Assembly: GCA_038204425.1 (NCBI GenBank)
Contig: JBBRCZ010000001.1
Span: 480,001-544,000, forward strand
From: Spirochaetia bacterium
GTDB taxonomy: Bacteria > Spirochaetota > Spirochaetia > DSM-27196 > Salinispiraceae
DNA: 64,000 nucleotides
Direction of reading: 5' to 3'
A program made the position numbers and the translations under genes. Shown here piece by piece: positions 15,859-25,802 of this stretch. Each line of letters begins with the position of its first letter. Position 1 is the first letter of the stretch. The notes under the pieces are model-generated. The model was not told where the DNA came from, did no database searches, and saw only the letters and a program-made list of their open reading frames with translations.

Positions 15859-16671
15859 ATGGATACAAAATCAGACTTGGAAACATTGCAACGACAATCT
15901 CGAGACTTTGACACTGAAACGTTTCTAGCATGGTCGCTAGAACGATTTTCTTCTCATTCGGGCACGAGTCTTTCTTTTGCTACTAGTCTTGGCGCCGAAG
16001 ACCAAGTACTACTTTGGCTCTTGCAGAAAGTCACTGCACAAAATTCTGAAGCTCATATATATCGTAAGAATTTGGAAGTTTTTAGCTTGGATACTGGTCG
16101 ACTACCAGAAGAAACGTACTCCCTACTGCACGAGAATCGTAGCTTTTTTGAGCTTCCCATTGTTCCCTATTTTCCCTTACATCAGGCTGTCGAATCAATG
16201 ATTGCTAAACACGGTGTAAATCTCTTTTATGAATCCATAGAATTACGCAAATCATGTTGCTATGTCAGAAAGGTAGAGCCGCTCAAGAGGGCTTTGCTTG
16301 GCAAAAGCGCCTGGATTACCGGGCAAAGGCGGTCCCAGTCGGTAACAAGAAGCAAACTTGAGCGCATAGAGTGGGACGATGGTAATCAAATGTTTAAACT
16401 CAATCCACTTGCTGATTGGTCGAGCGCCCAAGTCTGGCAACTAATCAGAGAAAAAAAATTACCCTATAACAAGTTACACGACCAAGGCTATCCTAGCCTA
16501 GGCTGCGCTCCGTGCACTCGCGCGGTTACTGCCGGCGAAGACGAACGATCTGGTCGTTGGTGGTGGGAATCTCCGGAAAACAAAGAATGTGGCCTACATA
16601 TTGGCGAGCAAACAAAACCTGCCAAATTTGAAATTACCAAAATCTCAAGTGCCCAACTACTAGAAGAGTAA
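15859..16671 (+). CDS. cysH: APS/PAPS reductase (Fe-S type)
   Basis: LDTGRL, CC..RKVEPL, GYPSLGCAPCT, RSGRWWWE..KECGLH. Confidence 0.93.
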   Translation: MDTKSDLETLQRQSRDFDTETFLAWSLERFSSHSGTSLSFATSLGAEDQVLLWLLQKVTAQNSEAHIYRKNLEVFSLDTGRLPEETYSLLHENRSFFELPIVPYFPLHQAVESMIAKHGVNLFYESIELRKSCCYVRKVEPLKRALLGKSAWITGQRRSQSVTRSKLERIEWDDGNQMFKLNPLADWSSAQVWQLIREKKLPYNKLHDQGYPSLGCAPCTRAVTAGEDERSGRWWWESPENKECGLHIGEQTKPAKFEITKISSAQLLEE

Positions 16672-16699
16672 ACTATCTATAAAAGAATAAAGGAATGGT

Positions 16700-17533
16700 A
16701 TGGATCATCTAGACAAGCTAGAAGCTATTAGCGTTTTTATATTTAGGGAAGCATACCGTAGTTTTAAAAACTTGGCCATGTTGTGGTCAATAGGCAAGGA
16801 CTCTACCGTGCTTTTGTGGTTGGCACGAAAAGCCTTTTTTGGCCATGTTCCACTTCCTTTGGTACACATAGACACTGCCTTTAAGATCCCTGAGATGATC
16901 TGGGGGCAGAACACTAAAGCTTTGGAAAGCAAGCAAACCTTTCCTGATGGTGCAATCAACCGAGCAGCTTGCTGCGGTGCACTCAAAACAGAAGCACTCA
17001 AAAACACCTTGGCTGGTACTTGGACACGCTGGTGCATGGACCACGAAACTGGCCACTATCGTGTGGACAACAATACCAAACCGTATACCGGAGTAATTGT
17101 TGGAGCACGGGCCGACGAAGAAGGTTCGCGTAGCAAGGAACGTTACTTTTCTCCACGCGACAAACACAATGACTGGAATGTCGACGATCAACCTCCAGAA
17201 CTTTGGAACCAATTTAAGACCGATTTTGCCCCCGGGAGCCATGTAAGAATCCATCCCCTATTGGATTGGACTGAGCTCAATATTTGGGAGTATATTCAGA
17301 GAGAAACTATACCAATTGTTGATTTATACTTTGACCGAGGAGAAGGAACTCGTTATCGTTCTCTAGGCTGTTACCCCTGCACTAGCACCGTAAAATCAAA
17401 CGCAAAAAATGTGGAACAAATTATTGAAGAATTGCGCACGGGCAAATTTGCAAACATTGCCGAACGATCTGGCAGGGAACAAGACAAAGAAGGTGGTGGG
17501 CTAGAGCATCCTCGTCGTGGGGGTTACAGGTGA
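16700..17533 (+). pseudogene. cysD: Sulfate adenylyltransferase subunit 2 with an apparent in-frame deletion
   Basis: [25 protein letters not shown]. The conserved (E/Y)RD..A helix after KIPEMI is missing (PEMI|WGQN), and the C-terminus reads HPRRGGYR where homologues typically end LR..GYM/F. Confidence 0.7.
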
Positions 17534-17898
17534 GCAAGCCAACACTCAGTTTGCGAGAACAGTTTGATGTGGTAGTTGTGGGACACGTTGACCACGGCAA
17601 ATCCACGGTTATTGGACGCTTACTTGCCGACACTGGTAGTTTGCCCGAAGGCAAACTGGAGGCAGTTAGAGCAACATGTGAACGCAATTCTAAACCCTTT
17701 GAATACGCTTTTTTACTTGATGCACTGGAAAACGAACATCGACCCCATAGAACCATGACCATCAGTATTGGTCAGCATGACCTTAGTCAAGACTCGCTAG
17801 ACCTACAACTGGATGCCAAGCAAGACGACAAAGAACTCGTTAAGCAGATCAGCCAACACCTAGGCGATCATGATGTTTTGGTAGACTATGCACTCTAA
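17530..17898 (+). pseudogene. cysN: Sulfate adenylyltransferase subunit 1 remnant (N-terminus fused to a short tail)
   Basis: Only 122 aa: GHVDHGKST and [10 protein letters not shown], then an abrupt loss of GITID and the rest of the GTPase. Confidence 0.85.
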
Positions 17899-18436
17899 GC
17901 AGGCACGCTTTCTATTGCCAGTAAGTCTAGAAATAGACGGTGCTCATCTCATTTTTGTTGGTGGTGGCAGGGCAATCGAGAGGAAGATTAGCCAAGTACT
18001 GCAACTGATGCCGCAAGATATCGAAGCGTCAATGGTTCCTAGCATAACCATAGTTGCGCCGCAGATTCTAATAGCCATCAAAAATACTCTCCTAGCTGAC
18101 CAAAGAATGACTGGTAACTATAATTTGATTGAACGAGGTTTTAAACCTGACGATCTGGACCAATTACTTGGTCCAGACGTTTACCAACTGGTTTGGGCAA
18201 TGACTAGTGATTCATCGTTAAACCAGAGTATAGGCCAGCTTTGCCGGCACAAGGGTATTTGGTGCAATGCAAGTGGTAACCGTTCGTTTAGGCAAGGAGC
18301 AGTACTCAATCAAGCTGGATTCTTGTTAAACGTTCAAAGTCTAGATGGTGAACACCGTTTAGATGGCGCGCGCCCAGCTGCAGCAGGTGCGCTTCGAGAC
18401 AAAATAAAGGAATTTCTATGTACATGCCCTTTATGA
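17888..18436 (+). CDS. SirC/CysG N-terminal-like protein A (precorrin-2 dehydrogenase-like, NAD-binding motif kept)
   Basis: [29 protein letters not shown]...C...GIWCN. Confidence 0.65.
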
Positions 18437-19131
18437 TTCAGATCCGCAAGGCTGTTGTTTTTGCGGGGGAGCGCGGGGAGGGTTTGCAAAAGGTAGAAAA
18501 ACTCTCAATTTATGCCGACCAAGTTCTCGTGATCCCAGAAAAACATTGCGACTACCAGGAGATACTTTTTCCGGCCGGGCCAATAGTTCACGGGACTGAG
18601 ATTTTGGAATTTTCCAGCGCCAAAACAGCAAAAGTGCAGGCAAAAATTGCAAACAAAAACAACTACAAACAAGCCATCAAGGGTGCCGACTTTGTATGTT
18701 CTGATTTGCTTGACCGCAAACTCAACCAAAAAATATTCGCCTACTGCAAAAAGAAAGGTATCCGCTGCAACGTGATTGACACCAAAGATTTGTGCGACAC
18801 TTGGTTTATGAGCTTGATAGACGTACCAGGTATGTTGGTGGGAATTTCCAGCAAAGGCGGATGCGCCTATTACAGTAAACAGTCCCGACAAGAATTGCAT
18901 GAACAAATTCGTGCGCGCGGCCAAATGAGTTTGGCTTTGGTTGAAGTCAAAGAGTTCATAAAACAAGCAAACAATAAAATGGATGGCCCCACGTTGGGCC
19001 TGAGCGTGATCCCTACTCTGGCGAAGGTCTACAACGACCAAACATTTAGAAATTTTATGGCACGCGAGCAAAACCAAGATGCTCTTGAGTATGCCAGAAG
19101 TATAGTTGCTGCCCCCACAGGAGGACAATAA
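18418..19131 (+). CDS. SirC/CysG N-terminal-like protein B (dehydrogenase/ferrochelatase-like)
   Basis: DRKLNQKI..YC..KGIRCNVIDTKDLCD and VGISSKGG. The Gly-rich motif is atypical (AGERGEG). Confidence 0.65.
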   Translation: MYMPFMIQIRKAVVFAGERGEGLQKVEKLSIYADQVLVIPEKHCDYQEILFPAGPIVHGTEILEFSSAKTAKVQAKIANKNNYKQAIKGADFVCSDLLDRKLNQKIFAYCKKKGIRCNVIDTKDLCDTWFMSLIDVPGMLVGISSKGGCAYYSKQSRQELHEQIRARGQMSLALVEVKEFIKQANNKMDGPTLGLSVIPTLAKVYNDQTFRNFMAREQNQDALEYARSIVAAPTGGQ

Positions 19132-20069
19132 TGGCTAGCTCCCACGAAAATTTGCTAAGTTTGATAGGTGACACCCCATTAGTAAAGATTAGTCGTTGTT
19201 TTGTAGGCACTGCCGCTGCAAACGCTATAATCTGGGGCAAGTTAGAGAGCCTAAACCCTGGCGCAAGCGTTAAAGATAGAATTGCTTTGGCAATGATAGA
19301 GGCCGCCGAAAAAGAAGGACGAATCAAACCTGGCGACACTTTGATTGAACCAACTTCGGGAAATACCGGTATTGGTTTGGCCTGGGTGGGTGCCATAAAA
19401 GGCTACAAAGTCATTTTGACCATGCCTGAGTCTATGAGTATTGAACGTCGAAAGCTTTTACGTGCCTATGGAGCCGACATTGTCTTGACACCTGCGGTAG
19501 CAGGCATGCGCGGTGCCATTGGCAAAGCTGAACTATTGTTGGCAAGCATTAAGGGTTCGTTTATGCCCAGTCAGTTTTCCAATCCAGCCAACCCCGACGT
19601 ACATTACCGAACTACTGGGCCAGAAATTTGGCAGGCACTTGATGGTAAAGTAGACATATTGATAGCGGGAGTCGGAACCGGGGGCACTCTTAGCGGAGCT
19701 GGCCGCTTTCTCAAGGAAAAAAATCCTGCTGTAAAGATTGTCGCTGTAGAACCTGACTCATCGCAAGTGCTTGCGGGTGGCGAGGCCGGACCCCACATGA
19801 TCCAAGGTATTGGAGCTGGCTTTGTGCCGAGCAACTATCATCCAGCAGTTGTTGACGAAGTTATTGCAATAGCTAGCCGTCCAGCAATTGAAATGGCCAA
19901 AAAGGTTGCGCGTACTGACGGCCTTTTGGTCGGCATTAGTGCCGGCGGTAACGTCTTGGCGGCTAGTATGATAGCGTCACGACCAGAGAACAAAGGAAAG
20001 AATATCGTCACTATTTTGTGCGACACCGGTGAGCGCTACGTTTCAACGCTGCTTTTTCATGAAGACTAG
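19131..20069 (+). CDS. cysK: Cysteine synthase A
   Basis: KLESLNPGASVKDR (PLP Lys), EPTSGNTG, GVGTGGT, IQGIGAG, DTGERY. Confidence 0.96.
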   Translation: MASSHENLLSLIGDTPLVKISRCFVGTAAANAIIWGKLESLNPGASVKDRIALAMIEAAEKEGRIKPGDTLIEPTSGNTGIGLAWVGAIKGYKVILTMPESMSIERRKLLRAYGADIVLTPAVAGMRGAIGKAELLLASIKGSFMPSQFSNPANPDVHYRTTGPEIWQALDGKVDILIAGVGTGGTLSGAGRFLKEKNPAVKIVAVEPDSSQVLAGGEAGPHMIQGIGAGFVPSNYHPAVVDEVIAIASRPAIEMAKKVARTDGLLVGISAGGNVLAASMIASRPENKGKNIVTILCDTGERYVSTLLFHED

Positions 20070-20113
20070 GTACCCGTATCAATTAAAAGCAAGAGCTATA
20101 ACAGGAGTCCAGA

Positions 20114-21697
20114 ATGCAATGGAAAAATGAATTTGCGCGTCGCAGCGAAGAAGAAGAAATAAAAGACCATGGCTTAACCCTGGACTTTGAAGAAATAGCC
20201 CGTCGCGGAACAATGAGCAAAGAAGAGAAGCTAATCGGAAAATGGTATGGTGTCTATGCATCTCGTCATCCCGGTAATCATATGGCACGTATCGTTATCC
20301 CGGGCGGAGTGATGTCGACAACTCAGGCGCGCAACATTGCCAATGTTGCCGAAAATCATGGGCAAGGCAGACTAAACATAACTACTCGTCAGGCTATTCA
20401 GTTTCATTGGCTAAAAGTTGGTGCTTTACCTGATATGTTTCGCGAACTTTCCGAAGAAGGAAATACTACTTTTCACGGTTGCGGTGACGTAGCGCGTGCA
20501 GTGGCGGCCTGTCCTCTGGCAGAAACTTGTGAGTATCGCCGCATCAATGTTAGACCCTGGGCAATACGAACCCAGAAAGCACTCAATGGCTACCGAGATC
20601 TCGACAACTTGCCTCGTAAGTTTAAGGTAACCTTCTCTGGCTGCCAAGCTGGTTGCGCTCAACCGCACATGAACTGTGTCGGTAATATCGCCGTGCAACG
20701 TAAAGCTGCCGATGGTGAAAATCAAGTGGGTTTTGAAGTTGTTATAGGTGGCGGAATGGGTTGGCAAGCCTTTGTGGCTCAAAGGCTATTTAGCTTTGTT
20801 CCAGAAGATCAGATCATTCAAATCAATCGTGCAATTGCCCTACTCTATCGAGACCATGGTGATCGCTATAATCGTCAAAAGTCGCGGCTCAAATTTGTCG
20901 TGGATCGACTCGGAATCGACGAATGCCGCACTATCGTGCTTAAATTCCTCACAGGCGAAGAAGTTGACATTAGTCAGCTTTCCTGGGAAGATTTTAAGGA
21001 GACTGGTCCAGCATTCCCAGAGCGCCCGTTGGCACAAGATGTAAGCATTGGCACTGATGGGAAGGCCGTGGTACGCGCCATGATCAACCTTGGAGAGCTG
21101 GACCATCGCCAGCTTAGAGCACTGGCGGAAATCGCCGATGTCTATGCTGATCAAAAACTGTACACTACCAATCGCCAAAATATTGAGATCCACGGTGTTG
21201 AGCCGCAAAAGGTTGAAGCCGTTCAAATAGCGATTAAGGCGCTTGGCTTTGAAACTGACGGTTTTTACTCGCTTAAAGACATGGTACCCTGTGTAGGTAC
21301 CACTTACTGCCCTAAAGCAGTGGGAACGACCCGTGATGTTTATGATCTACTGCAACCCTTGGTTAGGCAAAAAAAGTATGATGCAATCCAAAAATCAGCC
21401 ATCATCAACATAACAGGATGCCCCAACTCTTGCTCTCCTTATCGAATAAGCGACATTGGCTTTAGAGGCATGCGCATCCGCGAAGATCAAGGATCCGTAG
21501 AAGGCTTTGAAGTACTCTTGGGTGGCGATCAAAAAAAACATGGACAGAAACTTGGCGAGTTTAAGACAAGTGATCTCTACCAAGTGGTTGAGACGGTTCT
21601 TGACACCTTTGTTTCCTTACGCAATGAGAACGAGACCCTGACGCACGCCGTAAATCGCGTGGGAATGGAACCCTTTGAAAAGGCGGTTTTTTCATGA
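20114..21697 (+). CDS. Siroheme sulfite/nitrite reductase hemoprotein (Sir/NirA-like)
   Basis: TTRQAIQ, LPRKFK, and two CX5C...GCX3C sets (CPLAETC/SGCQAGC and CVGTTYC/TGCPNSC). The cys-operon context points to sulfite. Confidence 0.9.
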   Translation: MQWKNEFARRSEEEEIKDHGLTLDFEEIARRGTMSKEEKLIGKWYGVYASRHPGNHMARIVIPGGVMSTTQARNIANVAENHGQGRLNITTRQAIQFHWLKVGALPDMFRELSEEGNTTFHGCGDVARAVAACPLAETCEYRRINVRPWAIRTQKALNGYRDLDNLPRKFKVTFSGCQAGCAQPHMNCVGNIAVQRKAADGENQVGFEVVIGGGMGWQAFVAQRLFSFVPEDQIIQINRAIALLYRDHGDRYNRQKSRLKFVVDRLGIDECRTIVLKFLTGEEVDISQLSWEDFKETGPAFPERPLAQDVSIGTDGKAVVRAMINLGELDHRQLRALAEIADVYADQKLYTTNRQNIEIHGVEPQKVEAVQIAIKALGFETDGFYSLKDMVPCVGTTYCPKAVGTTRDVYDLLQPLVRQKKYDAIQKSAIINITGCPNSCSPYRISDIGFRGMRIREDQGSVEGFEVLLGGDQKKHGQKLGEFKTSDLYQVVETVLDTFVSLRNENETLTHAVNRVGMEPFEKAVFS

Positions 21698-23550
21698 ACT
21701 ACAGCTACCGCAAGGCTGCCAATCCAACTGAGTACTCGGTTATCGAAGGCTTGGGACTGAGCAGCAAAGATCAAAAAACAATTGCTAAAGATATACCATG
21801 CCAAGCCGCATGTCCTGCCAAAACCAATGTGCCGGGCTACATCGAGCAAATAGCCAAGGGCAACTTTGATGCGGCCTACCGAATCAATCTAGAAGACAAT
21901 GTATTTCCCGGGGTTTTAGGACGAATTTGTACGCGACCTTGTGAAGACGCTTGTCGCCATAAATGGACCAACACCAACGGGCCAGTGCAGATATGTCATC
22001 TAAAACGAACCGGTGCCGATCACCACCAAGAAAAAGTTGAGCCATTGCCATCGTGGTTTGATACAACAGAAAAATCAGTTGCCATAGTCGGCGCCGGTCC
22101 TTGTGGTCTTGCGGCAGCGAGGGAGCTGCGCCGTTATGGACACCAAGTCACCATTTTTGAGAAAGGCACTTACGCAGGCGGCATGATGGTCGATGGCATA
22201 CCACGCTTTAGGTTGCCAATAGAAACGGTTCGTAGCGAAATTGATCTAATTATAGCAAGCGGTATTGATTTGCGCTTGGGTCAATCAATAGATGCAAAAA
22301 AAATTAGAGAATTGGAAAAATTCTACGATGCGGTTCTTATTGCCACCGGCACCACACTGCCTCGTCTTTTGGAATTTGATACCACTTTTGAAACCAATAA
22401 GGGTGCCAAAAACGATCAAATCATTTCTGGTCTAGAATTTATGAAGTCTTACAATGACGGTGAAATTCACCACATCGAAGGTGATGTGGTAGTCATTGGT
22501 GGTGGATTTACTGCGGTTGACTGTGCGCGCGCATGTGCTCGAGCGGCCAAGCGCATTATCGGTGAGGGTGGCAATGTTTCAATAATGTATCGCCGAACCG
22601 AACATCACATGGCAGCAGAGCTCGAAGAGATGGAAGAAATCAAGCTCGAAAACATTGAAGTGAGAACGCTAGTTTCTCCACTTGGTTTCGTAGTTGAAGA
22701 TGGCCGGATCAGTGGGGTTCGACTTGTGCGCAATAAAATTGTTCAAGCTGGTGCCGCAAGCAAACCGGGCATTGTTGCTATCGAAGGGAGCGAATTTATT
22801 CAGCCTTGCCACACCGTGATTGTGGCCATAGGCCAAGAACAAGATTTTTCGATACTTCCAGAAGGTATAAGGGCTGGCCAAGGCCAAGTTAGCACCAATG
22901 CCAAGGTATTTTTTGCAGGCGAATTTCTGACAGGCTCTAGCGACGTAATTCATGTAGTAGCCGAAGGCAAAGCTGTTGCCGACGAAATTGACCGTAGCCT
23001 AACTGGGTTAGTGCGTAAAAAGAAGCACGTCGCTATCCAAGTTGTAAATGATATGGGTGACGGTGAAACCGGGCGCCATAGAGCCCATGATCAACAAAGC
23101 CTAGCACCACTAAAGATCGCATCACTGCCTTTTCGCATTGATGCAAAAATAGAAGTCGAACAAGGAATACAAATAGACCAAATAGATACTGCTGCTACTC
23201 GCTGTTATTTGTGCAACTACAAATTTAGTATCGACAATGACAAGTGTATTCACTGCGACTGGTGCATTGAAGTTGCACCTCGCGATTGTATCAAAAAAAT
23301 TAGCATGGTCTTTAACGACGACGACGGATTTGTGAAGGACTATGTCGAAACGGACGTGTCGTCACGAGCAACATTTATACATATAGATTCAGACGAGTGT
23401 ATACGCTGTGGAAAGTGCTTGAGAGTCTGCCCAACTGGGGCCATCACCATGCGAAGAGCGGACCTAGTCGATTGCATTAGTACTGATTCTCAAAAAACAG
23501 CGAGCCCTGAGGGCTGGAAGCCACTAAGTATCGGTCTATTGAAGCGATAG
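21694..23550 (+). CDS. GltD/DsrL/NfnB-like FAD/NAD(P)H Fe-S oxidoreductase with a C-terminal ferredoxin domain
   Basis: PCQAACP, GRICTRPCEDAC, GAGPCG, GGGFTAVD, YRR, RCYLC, CIHCDWC, CIRCGKCLRVCP. ATGA overlap with the reductase. Confidence 0.88.
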   Translation: MNYSYRKAANPTEYSVIEGLGLSSKDQKTIAKDIPCQAACPAKTNVPGYIEQIAKGNFDAAYRINLEDNVFPGVLGRICTRPCEDACRHKWTNTNGPVQICHLKRTGADHHQEKVEPLPSWFDTTEKSVAIVGAGPCGLAAARELRRYGHQVTIFEKGTYAGGMMVDGIPRFRLPIETVRSEIDLIIASGIDLRLGQSIDAKKIRELEKFYDAVLIATGTTLPRLLEFDTTFETNKGAKNDQIISGLEFMKSYNDGEIHHIEGDVVVIGGGFTAVDCARACARAAKRIIGEGGNVSIMYRRTEHHMAAELEEMEEIKLENIEVRTLVSPLGFVVEDGRISGVRLVRNKIVQAGAASKPGIVAIEGSEFIQPCHTVIVAIGQEQDFSILPEGIRAGQGQVSTNAKVFFAGEFLTGSSDVIHVVAEGKAVADEIDRSLTGLVRKKKHVAIQVVNDMGDGETGRHRAHDQQSLAPLKIASLPFRIDAKIEVEQGIQIDQIDTAATRCYLCNYKFSIDNDKCIHCDWCIEVAPRDCIKKISMVFNDDDGFVKDYVETDVSSRATFIHIDSDECIRCGKCLRVCPTGAITMRRADLVDCISTDSQKTASPEGWKPLSIGLLKR

Positions 23551-23678: not shown

Positions 23679-25802
23679 GTGAATCTCAGCATAAAAACAA
23701 AGTTCTTTACTGCCATAGTTCTTGTCGTGACAATCTCTGCAACCGTTTTCTATTTTTCCGAATCAACGGCCGTCACTCGTATTGAAGAACTTGGCAATTT
23801 AGCCAATCTTCAAAACAAAGACACTTCAGCAAAAGATTTGGCACACGATATCCAGGTGCAGCTTGCTCAATTGAGTGAGACCTACGCGTTAGCTTCGCAA
23901 AGCGACCAGGAGCAAAAGCTATCGATAGATGCTAAACAATATTTGGATACCAGCTCAGAAGGCTTATCGGCTTTAGCTAGTTACGCTGCCGGTCTTGAAG
24001 AAAGAAACAAGCGTTTGCTTGCCTTTGAACAGCAAAGCTCTATTTTGATTGCTCAAATAATCCATGGAGAAGCAAACCCAGATTCTGGATTAAGCACTTT
24101 TGTAAAAAACACGATACAGGAAAGACAACTATTTTGGATGCTTGGACTTGGCGCTGCACTAGTGATCTTGCTCATAGGTTTTGTGCTTGCACATAAGGCA
24201 AGCAGTTCTCTGCGAGCAACTATTGCTGCAGCCCAGCAACTCACTAACAAAACCAGCAATCTAGATAGCCGGTTGCCAGTATTCGCACAAGATGAAACGG
24301 CCAAGATCGCCACTGGCTTCAACAATTTTTTGGACAAGATGCAAGGTCTGCTTGCTTCTATCGTTTCCACCGTCAAAAAAAGCCAGCAACTCGGTATTCA
24401 TCTCTCCAAATCCTCTAGGGCTTCGGCTGAGACTATAAGACAAGTCAAAGACAGCATTCAAAGCATTCGCTCGGAGGTATTTAAACTTGATGATGACGTG
24501 TCTAGCTCATCAAGCGCTGTCGAAGAAATAATGGCCTCGGTGCATAGCCTTGCCTCTCAAGTAGAAAACCAATTTCAAGCCATAGAAAGCTCAAGTTCCT
24601 CAATCGAACAAATAATGGCCTCAGTCGCCAGCGTTGCAAACATCGCTAGTTCTCGGACCCAAACCATGGAAAATCTCGTCAGGATGATTAGAGATGGCAC
24701 TGATAAGGTAAGTTCAACCAACGCTATTATTTTCCAAATTTTATCTGATACTGACAACATGATGGAAATGGTCGACATAATAAATGGTGTGGCGCGTCAA
24801 ACCAATCTCTTGGCCATGAACGCGTCCATAGAAGCGGCTCACGCAGGTGAAGCAGGCAAAGGCTTTGCTGTAGTAGCCGACGAAGTACGCAAGTTAGCAG
24901 AAGATACTGCTGTTAACGCTGCCATGATTGGACAGTCCCTAAAATCAGTTACTCAAAGAATCAAGGAAGCTGGAACTGCCGGTTCGGCGAGTCAACAGTC
25001 ACTTGGGGCAATCAACAATGAAGTCAATGAATTTTCTTCTACATTGCAGGAAGTGAGCCTCTCGATGAATGAATTGTCGCTGGCAAGCACTGAGATTTTA
25101 CATTCGATCGAAACATTGGTTCTTACCAGCCAACAGGTGCGAGATTCTTCCAACGAGATGGGCATTGGCAGCAACGACATATTAAGATCTATTCAAAGCC
25201 TTAAAGAAGTCTCGGCAAATACTTTGCTGAGTGTTGATAATTTGGTAGTACTGTCAGAAACCCTTGAAAAATTATCGTTGCAAGTCTCTTCTTTTGGCAA
25301 CCAAAGCCAGTTTAACAGCTCTATTCTGGTTAAGGAAATAGCATTAATTACCAAGGCCGACACAACTATAGACGTCAACGTCACTTCTTCGGTTGGAATC
25401 GATTGGTCGGACATATTATCGGTAGGCATAGCAAGTATGGATGGAGAACACAAAGAATTATTTTTGCGGATCAACAATCTGCTAAAAGCTCTACTGGAGG
25501 GAAACCAACCAGCCAGAATTGAGGAACTCGTAAGCTTTATAACACAATACGTCGACATCCATTTTGGCAATGAAGAAAGTCTTATGGCCAGCTACAAGTA
25601 TCCAAAATTGGCCGAGCACGCAAAGCTCCATGAACACTTTAAGCAGGAGTTTAATGCGGTAATTGACAGACTTAAGAAGGAAGGTATGTCGGCCGTTCTT
25701 TTGATAGAAATTCAAGACAAAGTTGTTCAGTGGCTCTTAGATCATATAGCCAAAGTTGACAAACAATACGGAGACTTTATTGAGCAGGTGAAGGCCGGTT
25801 AA
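23679..25802 (+). CDS. Methyl-accepting chemotaxis protein with a C-terminal hemerythrin domain
   Basis: Two TMs, [39 protein letters not shown]. Hemerythrin ligands EHKELF, HFGNEE, HAKLH, HI...D. Confidence 0.93.

Follow-up and report, generated by a model that had tools for sequence, protein, structure and literature searches.

A cys operon of a Spirochaetia bacterium pairs a NirA/SirA-fold sulfite reductase with a GltD/DsrL-type flavoprotein, a putative NADPH-dependent sulfite reductase

Assimilatory sulfite reductases take their electrons from CysJ or from free ferredoxin. Escherichia coli CysJI reduces sulfite to sulfide with NADPH, CysJ being a diflavin (FAD/FMN) reductase. Mycobacterium tuberculosis NirA/SirA (1zj8) and the plant ferredoxin-dependent sulfite and nitrite reductases are single chains of two repeats that are served by transient ferredoxin. 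In DsrAB systems, DsrL-2 is described as the NADPH donor to the siroheme sulfite reductase (PMC7596348). In Fsr and haloarchaeal aFsr, a module that oxidizes a two-electron carrier is fused to, or paired with, a siroheme domain via ferredoxin-type clusters (PMC10229431, PMC3448663). The NADPH/FAD/[4Fe-4S] input module of GltD-like proteins (GltD, NfnB/SudA, NfnA and StnC of 9n5u, 9bov, 8oh5, DPD, and AegA) is reused with different catalytic partners; the accessible part of a review of this module names GltS, DPD, Nfn, and AegA as partners and no sulfite reductase (PMC8097209). The sulfite reductase classes in the legend of another accessible text are Fsr, DsrAB, AsrC, alSir, Dsr-LP, and aSir only (PMC10229431). 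We analyzed a 64,000-nucleotide stretch (the window) of a Spirochaetia bacterium (GCA_038204425.1, contig JBBRCZ010000001.1, positions 480,001 to 544,000). Its positions 15859-23550 hold a cys operon that ends in genes for a siroheme sulfite reductase and a GltD/DsrL-like flavoprotein.

The operon comprises eight co-directional open reading frames on the + strand, with gaps of 28, -4, -11, -19, -1, 44, and -4 nucleotides (Table 1). Reading frame layout and family profile scans confirmed the tight packing that an earlier note on the window had described. The same note had confined the damage to the ATP sulfurylase genes, and this holds: cysD and cysN carry deletions, no breaks were seen in the other six genes, and the reductase and flavoprotein retain their cluster cysteines. 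Decay of the whole operon was ruled out on these grounds. The genome assembly has 2.84 megabases in 24 contigs (handles C1, C5, C9, and C15 below) and is 95.6% complete. At a probability of about 75%, we read the sequences and models as ordinary assimilatory sulfate reduction that is distributed over several loci and has at its end an NADPH-dependent sulfite reductase with an unusual two-subunit make-up. Gene content, deletions, linkage, fusions, and motif conservation are seen directly in the sequences, and the fold and docking site are modeled; we infer the substrate, NADPH use, and electron path of the module as follows. Sulfate would enter via Sbp-CysTWA (C9), be activated to adenosine 5'-phosphosulfate (APS) by an intact CysDN (C15), and be reduced to sulfite by the operon CysH; the siroheme enzyme would convert sulfite to sulfide and CysK would make cysteine, the operon cysDN having decayed as redundant. 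NADPH would deliver a hydride to the FAD of the flavoprotein, from which single electrons would pass through the N-terminal clusters to the C-terminal 2x[4Fe-4S] domain. This domain would dock beside the catalytic [4Fe-4S]-siroheme, in place of CysJ or free ferredoxin.

Gene neighborhoods were surveyed at 160 loci (numbered with L) from two collection scans, the best 80 of 303 and the best 80 of 82. A flavoprotein gene lies directly 3' of the reductase gene in all 18 close loci that offer 300 or more downstream bases and in none of the 128 distant loci, and a cys gene is present in 20 of the 21 close reductase loci. Longer proteins were searched for fusions, which gave 239 matches at E 1e-20, and the best 120 of these were examined. 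All 120 are fusions of a reductase followed by a flavoprotein. The flavoprotein part is 44-54% identical to that of the window, at least 80% of the latter is covered in 118 fusions, and the gap between the halves is shorter than 10 residues in 101. AlphaFold2 modeled one natural fusion with a predicted template modeling score (pTM) of 0.86 and a predicted local distance difference test (pLDDT) of 93. Among the matches listed, no solved structure covers both halves (best template modeling score, TM, 0.41 of query). A search of the ESM Atlas was uninformative, with no match at 0.9 or above. In a FastTree phylogeny of 75 rows, some hand-picked and some random, the split forms fall among the fusions (0.989), but the rows had been selected for proximity to the query and there are stand-alone sequences outside this group as well; the tree is compatible with fusion and with fission. 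Two fusions, P0161 and P0211, bear a PF13241 annotation (SirC-like or a Rossmann cross-hit), and P0211, with 1243 residues, may have an extra domain. The earlier note had suggested surveying the neighborhoods of the pair, and the linkage proved to be conserved, in the 18 close loci and in the 120 fusions.

The reductase has two NIR_SIR and two NIR_SIR_ferr stretches in one chain (Pfam). Its model (pLDDT 92.9) has 1zj8 as the top Foldseek match (TM 0.86, 26% identity). It resembles NirA/SirA and the plant enzymes in the single chain of two repeats and in the CX5C..CX3C motif of the C-half, but differs in its dedicated flavoprotein, four N-half cysteines, and another inter-repeat linker. With CysJI it shares the predicted overall reaction and the cys operon setting; it is 18-20% identical to the CysJI hemoprotein in structure alignments. 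The catalytic cysteines C393/C399/C436/C440 are present in 240/240 clade sequences, as are R59, R128, K169, and K171, which we take to match the sulfite-binding residues of the E. coli numbering. Four such residues, two Arg and two Lys, are described for assimilatory enzymes (PMC10229431). The invariant Arg/Lys residues and the C-half cysteines thus fit sulfite as the predicted substrate. Y48 and C123 occupy the places of the NirA Tyr-Cys cross-link. The window reductase reads RKFK, with K171 invariant, where plant nitrite reductases have Asn (RKxN); we assume that Asn at the second Lys position is a mark of nitrite reductases and that the swap is meaningful.

The enzyme could be a shared sulfite and nitrite reductase that also finishes nitrate assimilation, which would be compatible with the reading given above. 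A region of C5 (26468-35653, locus L190) encodes a NarK-like transporter, a 709-residue nitrate-reductase-like molybdoenzyme, both below their NCBIfam cut-offs, and molybdenum cofactor proteins. Neither NrfA nor a second siroheme nitrite reductase (NIR_SIR) gene was found in the assembly, although at 95.6% completeness one could have been missed. The cys genes around 20 of the 21 close loci and the lysine at position 171 speak for sulfite instead. Methanogen Fsr is described with a lower Michaelis constant for nitrite than for sulfite (PMC10229431). We consider a dual role unlikely but deserving of weight.

The flavoprotein is ordered as an N-terminal Fe-S domain, an FAD domain with an embedded NADP domain, a linker, and a C-terminal 2x[4Fe-4S] domain. 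GltD-like modules are its best PDB matches (E 4.5e-63 to 2e-50), and the true gltD of the genome lies elsewhere (C1:479907-478441). A YRR motif stands at 299-301 (Y299 in 119/121 sequences, R300 and R301 in 121/121); YRR is reported as a sign that DsrL-2 and NfnB use NADP(H) (PMC7596348). Domain order and YRR motif are those of DsrL-2. In contrast to DsrL, the window flavoprotein has a monomeric assimilatory-type partner, to which its homologues are often fused, and an RCxxC at 503-507 that is invariant; no second NIR_SIR gene, and hence no dsrAB, is present in the assembly. The protein has no counterparts of the first two cysteines in the N-terminal motif of GltD, and RCxxC probably completes the N-terminal cluster. 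One C-terminal cluster motif is CxxCxxC..AP.xC532 and not CxxCxxCxxxCP. The putative donor is thus of the FAD/[4Fe-4S] GltD type, whereas CysJ is a diflavin reductase. The overall design is also that of Fsr and aFsr, but their input module is FrhB-like and F420H2-dependent, and their catalytic domain is of the single-repeat Dsr type.

The modeled complex contained the reductase, two segments of the flavoprotein (residues 1-125 and 440-598), and four clusters. The model scored 0.77, and the best of three controls scored 0.00. In the calibration, 116 of 157 solved complexes and 2 of 215 mismatched pairs attain the score mark; these counts are only roughly valid here. At least 87% of contacts agreed between runs, and the partner pLDDT was at least 91. 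Modeled contacts join ferredoxin domain residues 518-523, 556-561, and 577-581 to reductase residues 436-438, 400-403, and the 452-462 hairpin, beside the catalytic cluster cysteines; flavoprotein residues 2-8 give additional contacts. Four interface residues separate the clade from outside sequences: W217 (0.98 vs 0.00), P400 (1.00 vs 0.05), R454 (0.99 vs 0.05), and S461 (0.95 vs 0.02). The model supports, without proving, binding between flavoprotein and reductase. Conserved linkage, fusion, and this model together lend good support to the proposal of the earlier note that the operon leads from NADPH and sulfite to cysteine as a self-contained module, one whose donor is non-canonical.

In cys operons of actinobacteria, fpr accompanies cysI. 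By analogy, the flavoprotein might be a free NADPH:ferredoxin reductase that charges soluble ferredoxin for a conventional SirA, the linkage reflecting co-regulation only. The closest solved fold is indeed that of the ferredoxin-dependent NirA/SirA (1zj8). The statement in the earlier note that neither CysJ nor free ferredoxin is encoded here also stands only for the operon, as the genome carries a free 2x[4Fe-4S] ferredoxin (C1:207379-207525). This explanation is improbable when set against the short gap in most of the best 120 fusions, the confident joint AlphaFold2 model, and the built-in ferredoxin domain that is modeled on a surface with clade-specific W217, P400, R454, and S461. A search of the assembly for CysJ, which the earlier note had proposed, gave no match over the cut-off (two weak matches of 22 bits, cut-off 668), in line with its claim.

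In the open literature, we found no account of an assimilatory sulfite reductase with a GltD/DsrL-type partner; subscription papers and other supplements could hold one. The reductase type is widespread and apparently unstudied. By sequence and model, the two-subunit module would work in the manner of CysJI, and of DsrL acting with DsrAB, while belonging to neither. The family points to a third donor type across several phyla of uncultured or little-studied bacteria. With its fusions, one gene would suffice to study how a DsrL-type protein hands electrons to siroheme, which for DsrAB is an open question, and to ask if a monomeric reductase has room for a second cofactor site.

Characterized assimilatory enzymes are described as single-site proteins in which the N-half cluster motif is lost and a linker fills its place (PMC10229431, PMC11947256). 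Compared with the single-site monomeric aSir (NirA/SirA, CysI), the clade of the window reductase retains this motif: C133, C139, and C177 are present in 240/240 sequences and C181 in 239/240. The C-half carries mirror copies of residues that presumably contact siroheme, as in CysI, namely R321 (197/240), R354 (234/240), and H360 (213/240). In 133 distant sequences, these places hold G, S/T, and mostly P, respectively. The mirror position of K171 is hydrophobic, so that K171 has no mirror copy. The cysteines were at first considered unique to the clade, since none of the 133 distant sequences (mostly Bacillota) had all four, but 71 of 143 diverse sequences do (window included; 8 of 150 matches under 430 residues were excluded). 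The four cysteines are thus common in other relatives of the anaerobe type as well, and the mirror residues alone are mostly restricted to the clade and its nearest kin. Retention of the N-half cysteines in about half of these diverse, mostly unnamed nitrite/sulfite reductase representatives (P0379-P0527) runs contrary to the single-site rule for monomeric enzymes and points to a broad family with a possible extra cluster. A role of the second site in electron entry was not supported, as the complex model docks at the catalytic side. A structural siroheme or a bare cluster, off the modeled electron path, is plausible there. We tentatively raise the possibility, with the odds against it, that the clade is an undescribed sulfite reductase class. 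In this view, a single chain, permanently coupled to a DsrL-like NADPH module, has kept the two siroheme (or sirohydrochlorin)-[4Fe-4S] sites from its duplicated ancestor, with the DsrAB division into a catalytic and a structural site. If so, the two-site clade would correspond, on the assimilatory side, to DsrABL and would represent a surviving stage between reductases with two sites and those with one, available as a single soluble polypeptide of 1,110 residues.

The earlier note had also proposed that sulfate activation is lost and that the operon serves a sulfite-entry pathway, which was not borne out. An intact cysD-cysN pair lies at C15:46900-44724. That note had itself named an intact sat or cysDN elsewhere, together with growth on sulfate, as refuting evidence, and this pair supplies the genomic half of it. 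Its products (302 and 422 residues, all GTPase motifs present) score above the TIGR02039 and TIGR02034 cut-offs, and its CysD belongs to a different lineage, 34% identical to the operon CysD. Counterparts 57-59% identical occur in 4 of 7 family genomes; in the three genomes inspected, they adjoin a CysQ-like gene (named from sequence) outside any reductase operon. C15 is genome-like (tetranucleotide correlation 0.985, ordinary codon use) and carries the only miaB of the genome, with orthologues 60-67% identical in 7/7 family genomes; contamination is therefore unlikely. Directly before the intact cysDN stands an F-type ATPase operon (C15:46989-54751) whose gene order is N-ATPase-like, and an ilvD-like gene follows just after cysDN.

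A transporter search, likewise suggested in the earlier note, found a sulfate ATP-binding cassette importer, sbp-cysT-cysW-cysA, on C9 behind an Rrf2-like gene (Sbp above cut-off) and two SulP proteins, which weakens the sulfite-entry idea further. A CysE-like gene (below cut-off), two additional cysteine synthases, and the siroheme precursor genes hemA, hemB, hemL, and a hemC-cobA-hemD fusion are also present; hemA, hemB, hemL, cysTWA, and Rrf2 were named from sequence by the analyst. The three-way hemC-cobA-hemD fusion (C1:66561-68648, 695 residues) lies within the hemA/hemB/hemL cluster. Sat and APS kinase were not found in the assembly. No APS kinase would be needed, because the operon CysH shows the APS reductase signature CC..CxxC; CysH is at the TIGR02055 cut-off and above that of PRK02090, and being intact it fits a continued supply of APS, whereas a route that starts from sulfite would have no use for it. 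The sulfate-to-cysteine route is complete on paper, at the level of genes, and therefore the sulfite-entry reading fails.

The operon CysD, compared with six intact relatives, lacks 15 residues after I67 and has eight further changes at sites invariant among them, including L to P and M to R at the C-terminus. The operon CysN (122 residues) consists of residues 1-70 and, fused to them in frame, the final 52 residues of a 590-residue CysN (E 2e-7), about 470 residues being deleted. Contigs of sequencing runs X1 (possibly the source run) and X2 cross both deletion junctions without gaps; for X3, from a second study, one listed contig crosses the cysD junction only. An assembly artefact was rejected, because the contigs of other runs carry identical deletions. 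Neither is the loss a conserved design, since cysD, present in 6 of 21 close reductase loci, is full length (292-293 residues) in all six; CysN has about 590-600 residues in related loci where it was read out. Loci L095 and L112 share the gene order of the window, L112 ending inside the reductase. The damage thus looks like ordinary decay of a redundant copy, with no indication of cross-feeding. It is very improbable that the organism is unable to activate sulfate and supplies the module with sulfite or thiosulfate obtained from partners, for although the operon cysD and cysN are truly broken, no Sat was found in the assembly, and C15 is not physically joined to C1 there, the genome holds an intact C15 cysDN, a sulfate importer, and an intact CysH, C15 fits the genome by composition and miaB, and cysD is full length in the six related loci.

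The reductase clade is patchy in the host lineage, with no match in the seven family genomes, one strong and one weak match among 40 relatives, and one match at E 1e-100 in 400 other genomes of the phylum. The operon appears to have arrived by horizontal transfer, after which its cysDN would have been redundant and decayed. Record titles place loci in Kiritimatiellia, Brevinematales, Spirochaetales, and Bacteroidota, and protein names extend the clade to Lentisphaerae, Planctomycetota, Deltaproteobacteria, Myxococcales, and Chitinivibrionales. Clade members are often labeled nitrite reductase, glutamate synthase, or formate dehydrogenase in source databases. Pontiella was considered as a cultured host of the module, but its gene table lists canonical cysI and cysJ.

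Several points weigh against an NADPH-dependent sulfite reductase within a complete sulfate pathway. The reductase scores below the NCBIfam cut-offs for NirA (227.5 of 523 bits), CysI (128.2 of 756.55), and sir (111 of 731.5), and plant nitrite reductases are among its best PDB sequence matches. Sulfite may not be its sole substrate, given the C5 nitrate genes and no other nitrite reductase found. The free ferredoxin, and a flavodoxin also encoded in the genome, could act as donors. The 19 full-length close reductases collapse to 10 clusters at 90% identity, and the flavoprotein gene of L094 is cut after 39 residues. The complex run used two flavoprotein pieces, its own alignments, and ligands, which the calibration did not. 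The docking score may echo the solved maize reductase-ferredoxin complexes; likeness may have helped it because the halves are fused elsewhere and such a complex is solved. Composition and marker genes are the only ties between C15 and C1, in an assembly of 24 contigs at 95.6% completeness.

Table 1. Genes of the cys operon, with window positions.
Gene or product	Position	Strand	Remarks
cysH, APS reductase, Fe-S type	15859..16671	+	CC 133-134, CxxC at 216; intact
cysD*, ATP sulfurylase small subunit, probable pseudogene	16700..17533	+	15-residue in-frame deletion near 16900; drifted C-terminus
cysN*, 122-residue remnant	17530..17898	+	In-frame junction near 17740; without DxPGH and NKMD motifs
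SirC/CysG-N-like protein A	17888..18436	+	NAD_binding_7; putative siroheme dehydrogenase/chelatase part
SirC/CysG-N-like protein B	18418..19131	+	NAD_binding_7; without GxGxxG-like stretch at start; putative second siroheme-synthesis part
cysK, cysteine synthase A	19131..20069	+	Intact; TIGR01139 412.5 bits, cut-off 350.95
Siroheme-[4Fe-4S] sulfite reductase, NirA/SirA fold	20114..21697	+	Two-repeat NIR_SIR protein
GltD/NfnB/DsrL-type Fe-S flavoprotein	21694..23550	+	Fer4_20 + Pyr_redox_2 + C-terminal Fer4; putative electron donor

Homologues of SirC-like A occupy the equivalent position in L008, L009, L095, and L112. The tandem of divergent SirC-like genes (17888-19131) is also paired in L008, L009, L095, L097, L100, L102, and L112. 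A and B have a common alignment of just 20 residues, and B lacks the glycine-rich NAD loop at its start; the tandem possibly splits dehydrogenase and chelatase roles. A promoter/terminator scan of the operon was at chance level (11 vs 10.7; 10 vs 8.7).

In Bacteroidota-type loci (L011:123-2104, L096:5023-6984), the module stands beside ThiF/MoeB-like, DsrE-like, and JAB-like genes and cysK (named from sequence starts), a neighborhood that suggests a protein-thiocarboxylate sulfur relay. A second, distant sulfite-reductase-like gene (27%) lies in the operon of the module at L005:17212-18840 and L006:11376-13004. At L094:4245-4500, insertion-sequence-like unrelated DNA interrupts the flavoprotein gene after 39 codons. 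Directly behind the operon, window positions 23679-25802 encode a methyl-accepting chemotaxis protein with a C-terminal hemerythrin domain.

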